From contig CAZXJO010000002.1 in NCBI GenBank assembly GCA_964641155.1, positions 70,096 through 134,095 on the forward strand: a stretch of DNA of 64,000 nt, read 5' to 3'. A program made the translations under genes and the position numbers. Below the pieces are notes generated by a model, which worked only from the letters and a program-made list of their open reading frames with translations, did no database searches and was not told where the DNA came from. Shown piece by piece: positions 4,655 through 53,353 of the stretch. Within the stretch, counting starts at the first letter, position 1; each line of letters opens with the position of its first letter. The stretch comes from an uncultured Desulfurococcaceae archaeon (lineage in GTDB: Archaea; Thermoproteota; Thermoprotei_A; Sulfolobales; NBVN01).

Positions 4655-5674
4655 ATGTTTAATGTTAAATTACTCACGGTGTTATTGTTGAGAGTTGAGT
4701 CTCTGAAGGAATTCCTCATGAAGGGTTCAGTACTAGTAGTCCAGATGACTCCCTTCAACGACGCAGACGAAGTTGACGTAGAAGGTTTCAGGGAAAACAC
4801 TAGGTACCTAGTTGAGGTCAGTAAGAAAGGGCCCCTGGCATTAGTCCCATGCGGTAGTAACGGGGAGTTCTACGCGATGAAGGAGGACGAGATCAAGAAA
4901 GTTATCAAGGTAGCAGTTGAGGAAGCCGGGGGGAAGGTGCCGGTCATCGCCGGCACCGGGGCTGCAGGTACTAGAATAGCTTTAGAGCTCTCTAAATACG
5001 CGGAGGATGTCGGCGCTGACGGGATTCAAGTGGTTCTCCCATACTACCACGTACCTGACGAGGAAGGTATGTACCTACACTACAAGAAAATTGCTGAGGC
5101 AGTAAATATCGGAGTCATGATATATAACAACCCAAGCGTGTCTAAAGCTTACATTAGGCCGGCCTTGATGAAGAAATTGGCTGAGATCCCGAACATAGTA
5201 GGTGTTAAGGAGAACACACCCTTCATAGATGTGTTCCATCAACAGGTTAAGGCAGTCGGTCATAAGATACCGGTGGTTCAAGGACGTGGTGAGTGGTGGT
5301 ATGTTGCAACACTACCCTACGGGGCTAAGGGGTTTGTATCAGGGCTAGCCAACTTCCTACCAGAGTTCAGTTTAGAGCTACTTAAGTCAGGTTGTGAAGG
5401 TGAGTGGAAGAAAGCGCATGAACTAATCAAGAAGTTAGAACCCCTTGACGAATTCATAAGTAAGATGCGGGAGAAGTACGGACCCTCAACCGGCATCCTA
5501 CAACACCCCTACACAACCTCATACATATACATGAGTATTAGGAAGGCTGCAATGGATCTGGTAGGTCTTAAAGGAGGGAATATGAGGCTACCTCTAGTGA
5601 ATCTCAAAGAAGAAGATAAGGCAGAGCTATCTAAAGTTCTCTTCGACATGTTGGGCGTTAAGAGAGTTAAGTGA
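4655..5674 (+). CDS. Class I aldolase of the DHDPS/N-acetylneuraminate lyase (DapA-like, KDG-aldolase-like) family
   Basis: Motifs PCGSNGEFYAM, IAGTGA, VLPYYH, and the Schiff-base lysine context VGVKENTP. The likely true start is ATG 4718 (MKGSVLVVQMTPF). Confidence 0.8.
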   Translation: MFNVKLLTVLLLRVESLKEFLMKGSVLVVQMTPFNDADEVDVEGFRENTRYLVEVSKKGPLALVPCGSNGEFYAMKEDEIKKVIKVAVEEAGGKVPVIAGTGAAGTRIALELSKYAEDVGADGIQVVLPYYHVPDEEGMYLHYKKIAEAVNIGVMIYNNPSVSKAYIRPALMKKLAEIPNIVGVKENTPFIDVFHQQVKAVGHKIPVVQGRGEWWYVATLPYGAKGFVSGLANFLPEFSLELLKSGCEGEWKKAHELIKKLEPLDEFISKMREKYGPSTGILQHPYTTSYIYMSIRKAAMDLVGLKGGNMRLPLVNLKEEDKAELSKVLFDMLGVKRVK

Positions 5675-34077: not shown

Positions 34078-34494
34078 CTAATCGTCTCGGCAAACATACG
34101 CTATGACCTCCACCTCAACTTCAGCACCTCTCGGGAGGTTGGATACCTCAACTAAAGACCTTGCCGGGGGATTATCCGTGAAGTACTCTGAGTAGACATC
34201 ATTGAATGCTTGGAACAGTTTGATGTCTTTAATGAATACGGTGACCTTCACAACGTCTTTAAGTGTGGCACCTCCAGCCTCTAAGATAGCCTTTATGTTC
34301 TCCAACACCCTCCTAACCTTAAGTTTAAAGTCACCTTCAATTAAGTTCCCCGTCTTCGGATCGATGGGTATTTGGCCTGAGGTGAAGAGTAGGCAGCCGG
34401 CTATAATTCCTTGGCTGTAGGGGCCTATCGGTTTCGGAGCTCCTTCGGTACTAACCGTTTTAGGCATAGGGTACCACCTCTCACACCTCAACAC
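34078..34494 (-). CDS. ridA: RidA/YjgF/TdcF family reactive-intermediate deaminase
   Basis: PIGPYSQG, FTSGQIP, and the C-terminal ARSLVEVSNLPRGAEVEVEVIA. The likely true start is ATG 34467 (MPKTVST). Confidence 0.9.
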   Translation of the reverse strand: MLRCERWYPMPKTVSTEGAPKPIGPYSQGIIAGCLLFTSGQIPIDPKTGNLIEGDFKLKVRRVLENIKAILEAGGATLKDVVKVTVFIKDIKLFQAFNDVYSEYFTDNPPARSLVEVSNLPRGAEVEVEVIAYVCRDD

Positions 34495-34551: not shown

Positions 34552-35316
34552 TTGAAAATCCTCATAGTTTCAGACATACACGGGAACGCGGACGCTTTGA
34601 AATCTCTGCTGAATAGCGTTGGGGGATGGGACCAAGTCTGGGTTTTAGGTGATTTAGTTGATTATGGGCCTGAACCGCATGTAGTTGTGGAATTAGTTAA
34701 GGATCTGAGGCCAGACGTAATTATCATGGGAAATCACGACCATGCCGTAGCGTTCGGGACTGACTGTGGGTGCGCCCCCGAACTACATGAGTTAAGCGAG
34801 TACACCAGGCTCAATATATCGTTTAAGTTGTTGAGTAAGGACCAAATAGATTGGCTTAAATCCCTCCCAACAACCCGCAACATAACCGTAGACAATAGGG
34901 AGGTCTACATAGTCCACGGGTCCCCTAGGAACCCACTCTACGGGTATTTGAAACCATCACTGCCTGAGTCCGATACCTTACTAGCCCTCACCCCTCACAC
35001 ATACGCTATTAGACCCAAGCCTGTGGATGCGAACTTCGTCGTTGTTGGACACACCCACATACCTATGGACATTGAGGTTGGTGGTGTAAGGGTTTTAAAT
35101 CCCGGAAGCGTCGGTCAGCCCAGAGACGGTGATTGGAGGGCCTCAGCAGCGATACTAGATTTAAGAAAAGGTGAGTTTAAGGTCCATAGAGCCGAATATG
35201 ATGTTGGAGAGGTTGTCCGTAAGTTAAGGTCCTTAAGCCTTGACTCGAGGTACGTTACGTGGTTGGAGGGGATATTGATGAGTGGTAAGGTGGTGAAGAA
35301 GTCATTAACCTCCTGA
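34552..35316 (+). CDS. Calcineurin-like metallophosphoesterase (YfcE/MJ0936-like)
   Basis: Motifs ILIVSDIHGN, GDLVDYGP, GNHD, and VVGHTH. TTG start. Confidence 0.85.
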   Translation: MKILIVSDIHGNADALKSLLNSVGGWDQVWVLGDLVDYGPEPHVVVELVKDLRPDVIIMGNHDHAVAFGTDCGCAPELHELSEYTRLNISFKLLSKDQIDWLKSLPTTRNITVDNREVYIVHGSPRNPLYGYLKPSLPESDTLLALTPHTYAIRPKPVDANFVVVGHTHIPMDIEVGGVRVLNPGSVGQPRDGDWRASAAILDLRKGEFKVHRAEYDVGEVVRKLRSLSLDSRYVTWLEGILMSGKVVKKSLTS

Positions 35317-35367
35317 ACGTTCAATAGAGGTTAATACGTTAGCACGGTTAAACATCTCAGATGCGTC

Positions 35368-36375
35368 ATGAGGCTAGTGGACTCATACACGTTCCTGGAA
35401 AAACTTTACGACCTCATCTACAGCTTACTTGAGTTCAGAGATAGGGTAAAGGATGAAGGGAAGGAGATTATTCCGTTGAGGGTCGGCACACCATTAATCA
35501 AGTATGGCTTCATCTCCATGCTTAAAGGAGGGGTTATAGTTGATGTAACTAATGTTGATCAGGCTAGCATTGCTGAGGATTCCGGCGCTGTGGGCGTTAT
35601 GGTTTTAGACAAACTACCGTACGATGTCAGGATGGCTGGAGGTGTTGCTAGGACGGCTGATTTAAACGTTATCACGCAGGTCATGGATGCCATAACCATA
35701 CCGGTGTCAGCTAAATGTAGGATAGGACATCTGTGGGAGGCCAAGCTACTTGAGGAAGTGGGTGTTGATTTAATAGATGAGAGTGAGGTCTTAACACCAG
35801 TTGATGAGAAGGTACATATAAATAAGTGGTTGTTTAAGACACCGTTCGTTAATGGGGCTAAGAATTTGCCTGAGGCGTTGAGGCGAATACTCGAAGGTGC
35901 GTCCATGATTAGGACTAAAGGTGAGCCGGGGACAGGGAATGTTGCTGAGGCAGTAACTCATATGAAGCTCGTGAATAGGGATATAGCCCTGTTGAGGGGT
36001 TATTACGCAGCCGGTGATGTGGAGTCAATATACCTGTACTCCAAGGAGAATAAAGTTCATTTTGAAATGGCATTACTAACTGCTAAGCTGGGGAGACTTC
36101 CCGTGGTGAACTTTGCGGCCGGCGGGATCGCCACCCCAGCAGATGCTGCGTTGATGATGTGGTTGGGGGCTGACGGAGTGTTTGTTGGTTCAGGTATTTT
36201 CAAGAGTAAGGACCCTGAGGCAAGGGCTAGGGCCATAGTACTGGCTACAGTCTTTTACGACGACCCTGAGGTAGTTGTTGAAGCTCAGAAGATGGTTTCT
36301 GAGAAATCTTCAATGTTAGGGCTCGATATCAGGAACCTCAAGCCGGAGCAGTTAATGCAGGTCAGGGGTGAGTGA
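35368..36375 (+). CDS. pdxS: Pyridoxal 5'-phosphate synthase, synthase subunit PdxS
   Basis: [26 protein letters not shown], and GEPGTGNV. The ORF carries about 35 extra N-terminal residues, so the true start may be an internal TTG near 35476. Confidence 0.95.
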
Positions 36376-36976
36376 GTTGGTTAGGGTTGGGATTCTAGTT
36401 CTTCAAGGGGATTTCCTAGAGCATGCGCAGATGTTGAACGAAATGGCTAATGTGGAGGTTACCTTGGTCAAGAATTCAAACGACCTCAAGAACGTTGACG
36501 CACTCATAATACCTGGGGGAGAGTCCACAACCGTAGGGTCCCTGATTAAATTCAAGGGCCTTGACGAAGAAATCATAAGATTTTCTAATGAGGGGAAGCC
36601 CATAATGGGTGTCTGCGCTGGTGCTATACTGCTAGCCAGTAAGGTCTTGGACAGAGTTGTGGGGGAGGTTAACCAGCACGTGCTGGGGCTCATGAACATA
36701 GCAGTTATTAGGAACATATTTGGGAGGCAGAAACACTCCTTCATCTCCAAAGTTCACGTCGAAGGTGTGGGTGATGTGGAAGGAGTGTTCATAAGGGCTC
36801 CCGGTATTATGGAGGCTTACGAGCCTGCCAGGATAATCGGCTACCTAGAACATCCTGTTGTGGGTAGGGTGGGTGCTGTAGCTGTACAGAAATCATTACT
36901 GGCCATAACCTTCCACCCCGAGATAAATTCCGAGAAGAAGTTATATGAGTACTTCCTATCCATGGTGAGGACTTGA
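36368..36976 (+). CDS. pdxT: Pyridoxal 5'-phosphate synthase, glutaminase subunit PdxT
   Basis: PGGESTT, the nucleophile context [10 protein letters not shown], and FHPE. It overlaps the pdxS stop by 8 nt. Confidence 0.95.
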
Positions 36977-36985
36977 CCTTAGGCA

Positions 36986-38101
36986 ATGACGGGGAATGAT
37001 AACCTCCTCACATCCTGCTTAGTTTGTAGGAAGGAATTTAACGAGTTCCTCATGAGATGTCCAGCGTGTGGTGGGCCTTTAGAGATAGTGTTTCCAAGCC
37101 CCAAGTTCAGGGTGGACAGGAGTAAACCAAGCATTTGGAGGTATAAATCACTACTCCCCCCATTCAGCAAGGTCGTCACGTACGGTGAAGGCCTGACACC
37201 AGTAAGTAAGATTCATAACGTGTTGGTAAAGAACGAAAGAAGAAACCCCACAGGGACCTACTCGGATAGGGCGTCATCACTGATAGCTAGTTACGTAGCA
37301 TCAACTAACGTTAGGAAGTTACGAATGAAATTCGTCGAAGACTTCACGTACTCCCTCTCCTATTACTTAAGCGGTCTCGCAGACATTGAGGTTGAAGTCC
37401 TCGGTGATGACGTTGACAGCGATGAGCTAAGCAGGCTAGTCGATCTAGGTGTTAGACTAACACCCGCCGGCGATGCTAATGATCCATCAAGGCTGGACTA
37501 CCTAAACCCCCTAACCATCGAGGGTTTGAAGACCATAGTTTTTGAGGTCCACGAAAGGAATGTGAGGTGTGAGAACATAGTCATACCTGCGATAACAGGT
37601 TTACTGGCCTACTCCCTATGGAAGGGGGTTAGGGAGCTTAGGGATTCAGGTCTAGACGTATGCTACACTATAGTACCGGCAATCATTAAAGGCCAGCCAA
37701 GACCTAAGCTAATACCCAACGATGTGAGGGTTGTTGAGGTGGAATTTGAGAGAGTCCTCCATACGTTCACAAAGCTATGTAAGTCCGGTGTGAGGGTCAA
37801 ACCTGTCTCAGCGTTAGCTTACGCCGCAGCAGAGGACTTAGAAAAATCTATAGCGATAATTACAGCTGGTTATAAACCAAGCGCTAGGAGGGACTGGGGC
37901 AAGATCAGGAAGGATATTATTAATCTGCTGGGTAGGGAAGGTAGTTTGACCGCGTATGAGATCTGGCAGGGACTTAAGAACTTCACTTTAAGGGGTGTTT
38001 ACAAGGCCCTCAAGTCGTTGGAGGTCAGCGGTGTGTTATGTAGTGAGTTTGAGGTTAGAGGCTCTCGAAAAATTAAGCGTTATAGGTTATGTGGGAAGTA
38101 A
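36986..38101 (+). CDS. Threonine-synthase-like (fold-type II PLP enzyme-like) pseudoenzyme fused to a C-terminal winged helix-turn-helix
   Basis: ThrC-type N-terminal zinc ribbon (CLVCRKEF..RCPACGGPLEI), followed by IWRYKSLLP, YGEGLTPV, and VKNERRNPTGTYSDR. Canonical enzymes have NPTGSFKDR at that position, so Ser93 (codon 37262-37264) replaces the Schiff-base lysine. The glycine-rich phosphate loop reads ITGLL. The C-terminal ~65 aa (INLLGREGSLTAYEIWQGLKNFTLRGVYKALKSLEVSGVLCSEFEVRGSRKIKRYRL) form a wHTH pattern. Confidence 0.7.
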   Translation: MTGNDNLLTSCLVCRKEFNEFLMRCPACGGPLEIVFPSPKFRVDRSKPSIWRYKSLLPPFSKVVTYGEGLTPVSKIHNVLVKNERRNPTGTYSDRASSLIASYVASTNVRKLRMKFVEDFTYSLSYYLSGLADIEVEVLGDDVDSDELSRLVDLGVRLTPAGDANDPSRLDYLNPLTIEGLKTIVFEVHERNVRCENIVIPAITGLLAYSLWKGVRELRDSGLDVCYTIVPAIIKGQPRPKLIPNDVRVVEVEFERVLHTFTKLCKSGVRVKPVSALAYAAAEDLEKSIAIITAGYKPSARRDWGKIRKDIINLLGREGSLTAYEIWQGLKNFTLRGVYKALKSLEVSGVLCSEFEVRGSRKIKRYRLCGK

Positions 38102-38111
38102 CTCGCAATAT

Positions 38112-39599
38112 TCAGATCTTAATCCCTAACTGCGACAGTATTGATGCTGAGAAGAAGAGCGCCGACAACACCATGAATATTAATAAGAACGCGTACTCCC
38201 AAGGCTTAGGCCTCAATTCCTCGGGTAGCTTAAATGTGAGGTACATAACCGCAGGTACTACGAATATGCCGACGAAGTTCGCCGCATTGGCTGCTATTAT
38301 AACTAGGATCAGCGGCTGCGTCTGGTAGAGGGCCCATATGGTGAAGGCCACGTATGTGGCAAGTATTGAGTAGTACAGCTTTCTGACATCGTTGCCGAAA
38401 GCTTTCCTCACCCTCTCTAAGCCCCATATCAGGTCGGTTAAGTTTCTCGGCACAGCATCCACGTAAGCACCTAGGGCGGAGCTGAATAACACCATAAAAC
38501 CTATTAAACATATTAGGTAATAACCCCAAGCACCGACTATGGCCGCAAATTCGTTGGCTATATGTGCTGCAACACCCCATGGCGGCAGGGTCTGTCCTCT
38601 GGGGAGCAGGGAAGCGGCTATCAGAGACGGTAGGTACATGCCTAAGAGGGCTCCGGGGAAGAATATTAGCCATTGGTCATAACTAAGTAGCTTCATCCAC
38701 GTCTTAAACCTCCTCACATTCTCATCATCTATCCTGAACACCTTACCTACGGGTGATAACATTACTTTCTTACCGCCTATCAGCGCCGGAATGTAACCGA
38801 CCACGGCCCCCATACCGTAGCCCTTGTCCCTGTACCAGCTCATGAATACGAAGTTGAGACCCGCAGCTAGTGCGGTATAGGCCCACCAAGCAGTTATTAA
38901 ACTCATATCAGCACCCGGGGGTATGTAGCCAAAATTGAACATGCCCCACAGAGCCTCGTAAACGACTTCGGCCTTCAAAGTAAGCGGTGCAACCACAAGC
39001 GCCAACGTGATGAGTATGAAGCCTGCGAAGAACCAGTTCACTATTTCTAAAGTCCTCTCAATCTTATACCCAAACAACACAGTAATCACGCATAAGGCTA
39101 TTATGACCATCGTTAAGTACCTGACTAACCAGGCATCATTAGCTGTGGGCAGTCTGCCAAGGATTAGCGACCCCAACGCCGTGGCTCCCGAGCCAGCTAT
39201 ACCTGCTAGGCCCCAGGCACCCCAACTAATGATCACTGCCGCTAAGAACACGCTCCAGAACTTAGACCCTGGAGGCACTCTGCTGAGGTATACTATGGGT
39301 GATTCACCGCAGTACATCGAAATCCTAACCAAGCTCACGTTATATACAGTCTGGAGGAACGATGACACTAAAACTATCCAGGCCATGCCAAGCCCGTAGC
39401 TGACGGCGGTCGCAGGACCTAATAACCATTCACCACCACCTATTGCGACACCAACAGAGATAATGCTGGGGCCTAGGACTTTAAAGACTATTTCCTTAGC
39501 ACCCAACCTGGATACTCCGAAGACCTCCTCGGGAGTGGGTAATCTATCGACGACTTCTGCCTCTTTAGTACCGAGTTTAGTATTGAACTCACGCGCCAA
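38112..39599 (-). CDS. Polytopic transporter, Nramp-related/APC-superfamily-like
   Basis: 495 aa with about 11-12 TM. The N-terminal GPSIISVGVAIGGGEWLLGPA resembles the Nramp-family first-helix motif region. The specific substrate cannot be called. Confidence 0.45.
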   Translation of the reverse strand: MAREFNTKLGTKEAEVVDRLPTPEEVFGVSRLGAKEIVFKVLGPSIISVGVAIGGGEWLLGPATAVSYGLGMAWIVLVSSFLQTVYNVSLVRISMYCGESPIVYLSRVPPGSKFWSVFLAAVIISWGAWGLAGIAGSGATALGSLILGRLPTANDAWLVRYLTMVIIALCVITVLFGYKIERTLEIVNWFFAGFILITLALVVAPLTLKAEVVYEALWGMFNFGYIPPGADMSLITAWWAYTALAAGLNFVFMSWYRDKGYGMGAVVGYIPALIGGKKVMLSPVGKVFRIDDENVRRFKTWMKLLSYDQWLIFFPGALLGMYLPSLIAASLLPRGQTLPPWGVAAHIANEFAAIVGAWGYYLICLIGFMVLFSSALGAYVDAVPRNLTDLIWGLERVRKAFGNDVRKLYYSILATYVAFTIWALYQTQPLILVIIAANAANFVGIFVVPAVMYLTFKLPEELRPKPWEYAFLLIFMVLSALFFSASILSQLGIKI

Positions 39600-52868: not shown

Positions 52869-53353
52869 AGGTGAGTGTTAGGGAGTTAATAGTCAGTAAA
52901 ATTAAGGATGGAACAGTCATAGACCACATACCTTCGGGCAAGGCATTGGATGTGCTGAAGGTGCTGGGGGTCTCAGGTAAGGAAAGTTTCAGGATAGCCA
53001 TAGTGATGAACGTTGAATCGTCCAAGTTGGTTAGGAAGGACATCGTCAAGATTGAAGGTAAGTTGCTGAGTAAGGATGAAACCGACATAATTGCGTTGAT
53101 AGCCCCCACAGCAACTATAAACATAATTAAGAACTTTGAAGTCGTTGAGAAGAGGAAGGTCACGCCCCCAAGATTCATCCCAGGGCTGTTCAAATGCCCT
53201 AACCTCACATGTATCACTAGACATGAAGGCATCGAAACCACTTTCGAAATAATCAGCACGGGCTTGAGGGCAAGATGCATTTACTGCGGAACGGAATTAC
53301 CTTACCAGGAATTTATTGAGTTAATATTGAAGCAGATAGGAAGTGTGACGTAA
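52865..53353 (+). CDS. pyrI: Aspartate carbamoyltransferase regulatory subunit
   Basis: KIKDGTVIDHI is followed by a C-terminal zinc domain, CPNLTCIT...RCIYCG. It overlaps pyrB by 4 nt. Confidence 0.9.
   Translation: MKVSVRELIVSKIKDGTVIDHIPSGKALDVLKVLGVSGKESFRIAIVMNVESSKLVRKDIVKIEGKLLSKDETDIIALIAPTATINIIKNFEVVEKRKVTPPRFIPGLFKCPNLTCITRHEGIETTFEIISTGLRARCIYCGTELPYQEFIELILKQIGSVT

Follow-up and report, generated by a model that had tools for sequence, protein, structure and literature searches.

A threonine synthase-like pseudoenzyme fused to a winged helix as a candidate regulator of vitamin B6 genes in archaea

In a 64,000-nucleotide stretch of genomic DNA from an uncultured Desulfurococcaceae archaeon (hereafter the window), the pyridoxal 5'-phosphate (PLP) synthase genes pdxS and pdxT are followed at positions 36986-38101 by a gene whose product joins a threonine synthase (ThrC; EC 4.2.3.1)-like domain, without the catalytic lysine, to a C-terminal winged helix-turn-helix (wHTH). 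We consider it probable that this protein is a one-component, ligand-responsive transcription factor for vitamin B6 synthesis and uptake genes. A vitamin B6-linked regulator had been proposed in a first-pass annotation of the same DNA, and the proposal is now supported by linkage to pdxST in two gene orders, a putative operator at a fixed distance before pdxS, copies of that operator in front of transporter genes, and one case of co-variation between protein and operator. With somewhat less assurance, we favor a broader reading in which the protein is the founding example of a large archaeal transcription factor superfamily with a lysine-less ThrC-fold sensor. Its members would be the first regulators with a fold-type II PLP domain (~125 clusters at 50% identity in Thermoproteota, Bathyarchaeia, and Asgard, many annotated as "threonine synthase"), and its Thermoproteota branch would represent the missing archaeal regulator of B6 synthesis and uptake, acting at TTGAACGTTCAA and possibly sensing an unphosphorylated vitamer.

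A threonine synthase fold with a degenerate active site and a winged helix

The gene and the protein segments discussed in this section are listed below by window position.

36986-38101 (+): gene in question, encoding a ThrC-like putative pseudoenzyme with a C-terminal winged helix (371 aa, ATG start)
37016-37069 (+): N-terminal zinc ribbon, C11-x2-C14...C25-P-A-C28-G-G, the four Cys at least 90% conserved in the family
37262-37264 (+): Ser93 codon, at the position of the ThrC Schiff-base lysine (alignment to 6cgq and 1uim)
37331-37345 (+): F116-V-E-D-F120, in place of the asparagine loop S84-T-G-N-T88 (hidden Markov model [HMM] alignment)
37592-37606 (+): I203-T-G-L-L207, in place of the PLP-phosphate loop G-N-A-G-N (HMM alignment)
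37898-38092 (+): wHTH domain, residues ~305-369 (AlphaFold2 model and Pfam matches in relatives)
37991-37993 (+): Arg336 codon, located where the predicted recognition helix (T-L-R-G-V-Y-K-A-L) begins

The gene is genuine, as judged from 73 close homologue clusters for its 371-aa product and from 28 invariant columns in the family alignment. It occupies the third position in the pdxS-pdxT operon, its ATG lying 9 nt past the pdxT stop, as first annotated. The identical NCBI protein P0001 starts at Met23 (349 aa; window 36986-37054). Because this shorter form lacks the initial CxxC of the zinc ribbon, a conserved feature, the supported start is the one at 36986 (371 aa), which is backed by homologues and by the Logan call P0087.

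An AlphaFold2 model built from 73 sequences (predicted local distance difference test [pLDDT] score of 92; predicted template modeling score of 0.79) gave the ThrC fold. Its top Foldseek matches are the threonine synthases 1uim, 2zsj, and 6cgq (E~2e-15, TM scores of 0.56-0.62), and the best solved-structure matches come from Thermus, Aquifex, Bacillus, and Mycobacterium. The Pfam PALP family (PF00291) also matches above threshold (7.4e-12). According to the model, the protein is thus of the fold-type II PLP-enzyme fold of the ThrC type. Each element of the ThrC N-terminal architecture named in the first-pass annotation was found in the translation: besides the zinc ribbon, these are W51-R-Y followed by L-L-P, G67-E-G-L-T-P, and N87-P-T-G-T-Y-S93-D-R. 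The zinc-ribbon cysteines also occur in the lysine-bearing ThrC relatives P0083 and P0084, and the ribbon is an inheritance from Zn-ribbon-bearing ThrC enzymes.

Residues of the window protein were placed by HMM alignment of the family profile to the ThrC structures 6cgq, 1uim, 2zsj, and 2d1f. Ser93 aligns with Lys61 of T. thermophilus ThrC (alignment numbering, 1uim). The lysine column holds A, S, M, V, L, or T in 60 aligned family members and A (52), S (16), V (8), T (6), or I (1) in 83 family open reading frames (ORFs) from the surveyed loci, but never K; the Schiff-base lysine is missing from every database member of the family as well. At the asparagine loop, the family consensus reads (Y/F)-x-E-D-F, with F120 present in 54 and D119 in 48 of the 60 members. 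At the phosphate-loop site, G205 and L207 are invariant and position 204 is T or S in 48/60. The ThrC residues T88, N154, S155, and R160 align with F120, D171, Y172, and T177 of the window protein; we take these four residues of the T. thermophilus enzyme to be its O-phosphohomoserine phosphate binders, and the catalytic roles of the aligned residues are assumed in the same way. All NCBIfam threonine synthase models fall far under their cut-offs, with the best, PRK05638 (442 positions), reaching 106.6 bits versus 421 over positions 3-239 only and TIGR00260 reaching 21.7 bits versus 167.1. The ThrC core is also ~70 residues shorter than that of long relatives and PRK05638-type proteins.

This alignment with bona fide ThrC bore out the initial observations that Ser93 replaces lysine in NPTGTYSDR, that the G-N-x-G-N loop reads ITGLL, and that the STGN-type segment is unrecognizable. 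With the lysine absent family-wide and three more catalytic or cofactor segments replaced, covalent PLP catalysis is, as first suggested, very unlikely, and the assignment of the protein as a predicted pseudoenzyme is supported consistently across the family. Even so, 24 of the 28 invariant columns fall in the ThrC-like domain and cluster at the former active site, among them N87-P-T, D94-R, Y172, G205, L207, and the Thr of T-x-G-x-K. Such strong constraint is the pattern expected of a retained ligand pocket rather than of a decaying gene.

The last ~65 residues, annotated from the start as a wHTH, are modeled as a winged helix, with a three-helix bundle (306-318, 323-329, and 335-347) and a beta-hairpin wing (strands 351-358 and 361-368). 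The linker to the sensor domain (residues 298-303) has a pLDDT below 50. Among 60 family members, weak Pfam wHTH matches were obtained to TrmB (12, best 1.8e-6), HTH_11 (6), and PadR (5). Few segments of the protein are as conserved as the predicted recognition helix, in which Y339 never varies and K340 and R336 hardly do. Across the family and related sequences, residue 336 is R in 137; Vulcanisaeta and a distant long group have Q instead, and one small group has K.

Linkage to pdxST and a palindrome at the promoters

The operon and its promoter comprise the following features.

35314-35323 (no strand): predicted operator core, the perfect palindrome TGAACGTTCA, conserved upstream of pdxS in relatives
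35331-35336 (+): TATA-like box TTAATA, 8 nt after the core and 32-37 nt before the pdxS ATG
35368-36375 (+): pdxS, PLP synthase lyase subunit, 335 aa (PF01680, 5.6e-89; NF003215, 445 bits versus 395)
36368-36976 (+): pdxT, PLP synthase glutaminase subunit, 202 aa (PF01174, 1.5e-46; TIGR03800, 168.6 bits versus 105.55)

The pdxS and pdxT genes overlap by 8 nt. Conservation of this neighborhood was surveyed in 80 loci from a close-family profile scan of metagenomes, supplemented with loci from genome and protein look-ups. Regulator sequences clustered at 80% identity formed 43 clusters, 39 of them informative and 4 with flanks too short to use. Linkage to pdxST is kept in 28 of the 39: the order is pdxS-pdxT-X (X, regulator gene) in 24 clusters, as in Desulfurococcus mucosus, and X-pdxS-pdxT in 3, as in a Thermofilum metagenome-assembled genome (MAG), and X lies 2.8 kb upstream of pdxS in 1. 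In the other 11 clusters, exemplified by Infirmifilum lucidum, pdxST is not found within at least 2 kb on either side of X. Because the two gene orders differ, the association points to functional linkage rather than merely inherited synteny. A lack of conserved linkage to pdxST in related genomes, which the first-pass annotation had named as grounds for dropping its proposal, is not what the survey found.

A palindromic operator upstream of pdxS had also been anticipated. When the 130 nt ahead of pdxS were aligned for 49 non-identical loci, the palindrome TTGAACGTTCAA, found in the window at 35314-35323, was present in all 49 distinct upstream regions, its core starting 52-62 nt (median 57) before the start codon. 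In most relatives, the symmetry extends over 16 bp, with the half-sites T(A/G)TTGAAC and GTTCAA(T/C)A; the window sequence is symmetric in the 10-bp core only. The 16-bp duplex form of the predicted operator is TATTGAACGTTCAATA, and the first three bases of the core in the window serve as the stop codon of the upstream metallophosphoesterase ORF. The core occurs exactly once in the 64-kb window versus 0.03 copies expected. As a control, 1.17 Mb of unrelated ThrC loci contained 2 exact copies of the palindrome; these loci came from an over-general profile scan of genome contigs, in which 77 of 80 hits were ordinary lysine-bearing ThrC genes. Within the family loci, every exact copy precedes pdxS, an energy-coupling factor (ECF) S-component gene, or a major facilitator superfamily (MFS) transporter gene. 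Window copies with one mismatch at 53007 and 57346 were rejected as regulon members, both being inside ORFs and 1.5 such copies being expected by chance.

A TATA-like T-T-A-A-(C/T)-A follows the palindrome at a constant spacing of 8 nt in the 49 promoters. In their position matrix, columns +17 to +21 read (A/T)-T-A-(A/T), with T in 42 and A in 38 promoters. By analogy with archaeal promoters in general, we take this element to be a putative TATA box and place the transcription factor B recognition element (BRE) between the box and the operator. The extended site ends 4 nt ahead of the TATA-like box.

Four loci without adjacent pdxST carry the same palindrome and TATA module next to X, in front of other genes. 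Two of them (L133 and L134) have the order X, palindrome, ECF S-component (PF07155, 2e-20 and 4e-18), double ATP-binding cassette (ABC) ATPase, and T component, and the other two (L001 and L124) have the order palindrome, MFS transporter, and X. The TATA spacing is as at pdxS, and the palindrome lies 46-62 nt from the start codons. These loci show that the operator goes with the regulator gene independently of pdxST. The B6 ECF S-components PdxU and PdxU2/HmpT belong to PF07155 (PMC9997740); Pfam names this family for riboflavin, which makes the substrate assignment uncertain. The predicted targets of the operator are pdxST, PF07155 ECF, and MFS genes, and a response of this control to PLP is a prediction.

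A further tie between the protein and the palindrome comes from Vulcanisaeta, to which all named close-family members with Gln for Arg336 belong. In Vulcanisaeta sp. JCM 14467, where pdxST stands alone, the pdxS promoter carries TTAAACGTTTAA 54 nt before the start, with the same G-to-A change in both half-sites. Arg-to-Gln together with G-to-A agrees with common protein-DNA recognition preferences. A PdxS search from the Vulcanisaeta protein, made for a second Gln-type promoter, gave no more named Vulcanisaeta PdxS, and the Gln-type regulator loci L172 and L173 have neither pdxST nor the variant palindrome. Downstream of the Gln-type regulator in these Vulcanisaeta-type loci (L172, 11245-13328) lie genes for a conserved HTH-CBS protein and for a radical SAM enzyme, and upstream lie two MutS-like genes. 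In Vulcanisaeta sp. JCM 16159 (L003, 10001-11079), the regulator homologue appears as two tblastn segments in different frames, which could mean a frameshift, and possibly a pseudogene, or else an error in the draft assembly.

An operator-like autoregulatory palindrome was not found at the unlinked copies L003, L081, L099, L112, L135, L152, L153, L158, and L164. One-mismatch copies at L152 (inside an ABC substrate-binding gene) and L003 (inside an ORF) were taken as chance. In the unlinked lineage that includes L163 (1176-2333) and L099/L100, the upstream neighbor of the regulator encodes a PLP-dependent enzyme of Cys/Met metabolism (PF01053), and the 360-nt spacer showed no palindrome resembling the operator.

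Several neighboring features were recorded. PdxS has an N-terminal extension of ~40 aa (window 35368-35490) ahead of the SOR_SNZ/PdxS profile start at residue 39-43. Essentially every related locus keeps this extension from residue 1 onward, and the start codon (ATG, GTG, or TTG) falls at one position. A RidA/L-PSP gene (PF01042, 1.5e-41) lies at 34078-34494 (-), on the opposite strand and ~0.9 kb ahead of the pdx operon. Reactive enamines that PLP enzymes produce are quenched by RidA proteins; this neighborhood is not conserved in the closest relatives (L082-L084) and may therefore be a coincidence. Convergent with the regulator gene, the stops being 10 nt apart, is a gene at 38112-39599 (-) for a 495-aa multi-pass membrane protein without a Pfam match, kept in the same position at ~81% identity in L082-L084 only. 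No operator was found ahead of this gene.

Relatives with a winged helix and without the lysine

A profile search of 1.84 billion representatives returned 137 proteins at E<=1e-30. Approximately 35 clusters are of the compact 370-385-aa type, and ~90 clusters (50% identity; P0265-P0370) comprise ThrC-like proteins of 420-500 aa that also carry a C-terminal wHTH. In these longer relatives, the lysine position is occupied by I, R, L, M, V, T, F, Y, or E. Presence of the wHTH was tabulated against the residue at the lysine position for 200 sequences with a readable motif.

wHTH present: Lys in 1 (P0313, Bathyarchaeota), another residue in 164
wHTH absent: Lys in 28, another residue in 7 (mostly fragments)

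Acquisition of the wHTH thus goes almost perfectly with loss of the lysine. P0313 and its 62-member cluster (Bathyarchaeota, 470 aa) are the only wHTH-bearing relatives to keep the lysine, within NPTSSFKDR, and P0313 may represent an intermediate between ThrC and the regulators, a "trigger enzyme" that is still active.

The distant Lys-to-Arg members P0078 and P0080 adjoin PF07155 ECF genes. Such wHTH-bearing relatives (Asgard-type and others) are found next to PF07155 ECF S-component genes at L166, L167, and L168. The region upstream of the L166 gene (9270-9325) has a tandem direct repeat, GTT(T/C)CATTTTGAATAT, that contains TTCA-N3-TGAA, and L168 carries TTCTTAAAGAA at 5356-5433; the crenarchaeal palindrome was not found at L166 or L168. 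P0080 itself (L168), with a wHTH and Arg at the lysine site, passes the PRK05638 cut-off (473 bits versus 421), all 442 positions being matched end to end. NCBIfam NF004170 (PRK05638.1) therefore names regulator-like proteins as enzymes, and such "threonine synthase" calls are likely a systematic misannotation.

Proposed mechanism, alternatives, and relation to known systems

In the mechanism we propose, a dimeric sensor domain derived from threonine synthase (fold-type II) would have lost covalent catalysis and kept a constrained pocket. The dimeric reading draws on the operator being palindromic and on the solved threonine synthases, which are dimers. Two C-terminal winged helices would sit on the two half-sites of the extended palindrome, abutting the BRE and TATA elements of the pdxS promoter, and would make the same contact at PdxU-family ECF or MFS transporter promoters in other lineages. 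A B6 vitamer bound in the former active site would alter DNA affinity and so place B6 synthesis and uptake under feedback control. The foremost candidate for this effector is PLP; with the phosphate loop and the O3'-binding Asn gone, an unphosphorylated vitamer is a live alternative. Since the regulator gene is co-transcribed with pdxS-pdxT in the window, the protein would also be autoregulated. We infer, in this scheme, binding of the operator by the regulator itself, its dimeric state, its effector, and the sign of regulation.

As to that sign, the extended site covers the BRE position, so that a bound protein would probably interfere with TFB and TBP, which points to repression with the vitamer as co-repressor. 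We lean slightly toward such PLP-dependent repression, a simple negative autoregulation. By analogy, an apo-activator inactivated by PLP would fit about equally well, as for PdxR and as proposed for RbkR: bacterial apo-PdxR activates pdxST with PLP as an anti-activator (PMC5320631), and RbkR sites just upstream of promoter elements have been read as activating (PMC5397151).

Several points weigh against a B6-responsive regulator. Eleven of the 39 informative clusters adjoin neither pdxST nor any visible operator, and both DNA binding and ligand binding are predictions. The operator position is compatible with activation and repression alike. PLP binding is not assured, given that the PLP-phosphate loop and the O3'-binding Asn are not conserved and that acidic residues (E118, D119, and D/E171) line the presumed pocket. 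PF07155 includes non-B6 S-components too, and the co-variation involves a single Vulcanisaeta promoter, with the Gln regulators known from congeners rather than from the same genome.

Co-transcription with pdxS-pdxT and a PLP-enzyme fold would also be expected of a protein that belongs to the B6 regulon without governing it, namely a non-catalytic protein that binds PLP to carry or buffer it, or an accessory PLP synthase subunit, whose wHTH makes protein contacts while another factor occupies the palindrome. PLP is reactive, and cells use carrier proteins for it; unlinked copies without a visible autoregulatory site would also be in keeping with this role. It is nevertheless improbable in our estimate: the palindrome stays with the gene where pdxST is replaced by other target genes, few segments are as conserved as the predicted recognition helix, and the R-to-Q exchange coincides with a symmetric operator change. 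The coupling of wHTH and lysine loss across ~200 relatives is likewise what would be expected of a fusion between a sensor and a DNA-binding domain, and not of a carrier. We give a similarly small chance to a transcription factor that responds to something other than a B6 vitamer, such as a ligand of the ThrC type (O-phosphohomoserine or threonine) or a substrate of PLP synthase (ribose 5-phosphate, glyceraldehyde 3-phosphate, or glutamine). Replacement of the G-N-A-G-N loop and the O3'-binding Asn, together with the acidic and aromatic residues gained in the pocket, would suit such an effector. O-phosphohomoserine is made unlikely by the replacement of the residues aligned to T88, N154, S155, and R160. 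NPTG...DR and the Thr of the C-terminal T-x-G-x-K, which are parts of the ThrC cofactor site, are conserved. The nature of the targets (PLP synthase and PdxU-family ECF and MFS importers) favors end-product sensing, as in the vitamin regulators PdxR, ThiR, and RbkR.

An active threonine synthase, or another PLP enzyme with an extra domain, is what JGI (Joint Genome Institute) and NCBI annotations imply with "threonine synthase" or "pyridoxal-phosphate dependent enzyme," and the PALP match is above threshold. This reading is very hard to sustain when the Schiff-base lysine is found in no member, the Asn loop, the phosphate loop, and the substrate-phosphate residues are lost, the ThrC core has lost ~70 residues by comparison with the long relatives, and the best ThrC model scores 107 bits versus its 421-bit cut-off. 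A one-component regulator of B6 genes remains our preferred interpretation.

If this interpretation is correct, a bacterial solution was reinvented independently and convergently in archaea, with a PLP-enzyme fold of another fold type reused as a B6 sensor. For archaeal control of vitamin B6 synthesis, a candidate regulator, a predicted operator sequence, and a promoter geometry are now in hand, and the predicted regulon points to candidate archaeal B6 importers, namely an MFS permease and an ECF system of the PdxU family. Regulators and transporters had largely been left open in a survey of PLP pathways published in 2023 (PMC9997740). Cultured, genome-sequenced hosts exist in Desulfurococcus mucosus, Vulcanisaeta distributa, and Infirmifilum lucidum. 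Misannotated wHTH-bearing, lysine-less "threonine synthases" can also falsely fill the threonine pathway in archaeal MAG reconstructions. In the literature searched, in which coverage is incomplete and subscription journals are largely missing, neither the protein family nor the palindrome nor PRK05638 was found described, and no account of an archaeal B6 regulator or of any regulator with a fold-type II PLP domain came to light, in keeping with the initial impression that the protein is undescribed.

Comparison with known systems begins with ThrC itself. The window protein shares the fold, zinc ribbon, and WRY, EG-TP, NPTG, and DR motifs of the Zn-ribbon-bearing archaeal and bacterial enzyme but differs from it in lacking the Schiff-base lysine and in three further degenerate catalytic or cofactor segments. 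Another fold-type II PLP protein with a part in transcriptional control is CysK of Bacillus subtilis, an active enzyme that reportedly binds the separate Rrf2-type repressor CymR in trans and thereby signals metabolite status; the window protein, in contrast, is a single polypeptide in which enzyme function is predicted to be lost.

The closest functional counterpart is the bacterial PdxR, of the MocR subfamily of GntR regulators, a one-component regulator with a wHTH fused to a PLP-enzyme-derived sensor, which controls pdxST and, according to reconstructed regulons, pdxK and the ECF S-component gene pdxU, with PLP as effector (PMC5320631). The target set predicted here (pdxST, PF07155 ECF, and MFS genes) mirrors the PdxR regulon. 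The two proteins have no homology. PdxR combines an N-terminal GntR-type wHTH with a fold-type I (aminotransferase) domain that keeps the PLP lysine; its operators consist of direct or mixed repeats, and it is encoded divergently from pdxST. The window protein, in contrast, has a C-terminal wHTH and a fold-type II ThrC sensor without the lysine and is encoded in the same operon as its predicted targets, which carry a simple 16-bp palindrome. Archaea are reported to lack MocR/PdxR regulators, and the regulons of PdxR in bacteria consist of pdxST, pdxK, and pdxU (PMC5320631); the suggestion that the archaeal fusion is an independent solution agrees with this reported absence.

In design, the protein also resembles RbkR, an archaeal one-component regulator found by comparative genomics, in which a DNA-binding domain is joined to a product sensor derived from a pathway enzyme and which acts at palindromic sites beside the promoter elements of biosynthesis and transporter genes (PMC5397151). 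RbkR (vitamin B2), derived from riboflavin kinase, keeps its enzymatic activity, whereas catalysis would have been lost in the window protein. ThiR (vitamin B1), with a ThiN-derived sensor, is said to follow the RbkR design, with palindromic sites and discovery by comparative genomics. The sensor folds of RbkR and ThiR are unrelated to that of the window protein and their DNA-binding domains are N-terminal; the window sensor, moreover, goes back to an enzyme for which the vitamin is a cofactor and not to one of the vitamin's own pathway. By architecture and logic, and not by homology, the protein would belong with the ThiR/RbkR class of enzyme-derived archaeal vitamin regulators. Conceptually it groups with PdxR, ThiR, and RbkR; structurally it is a new family.

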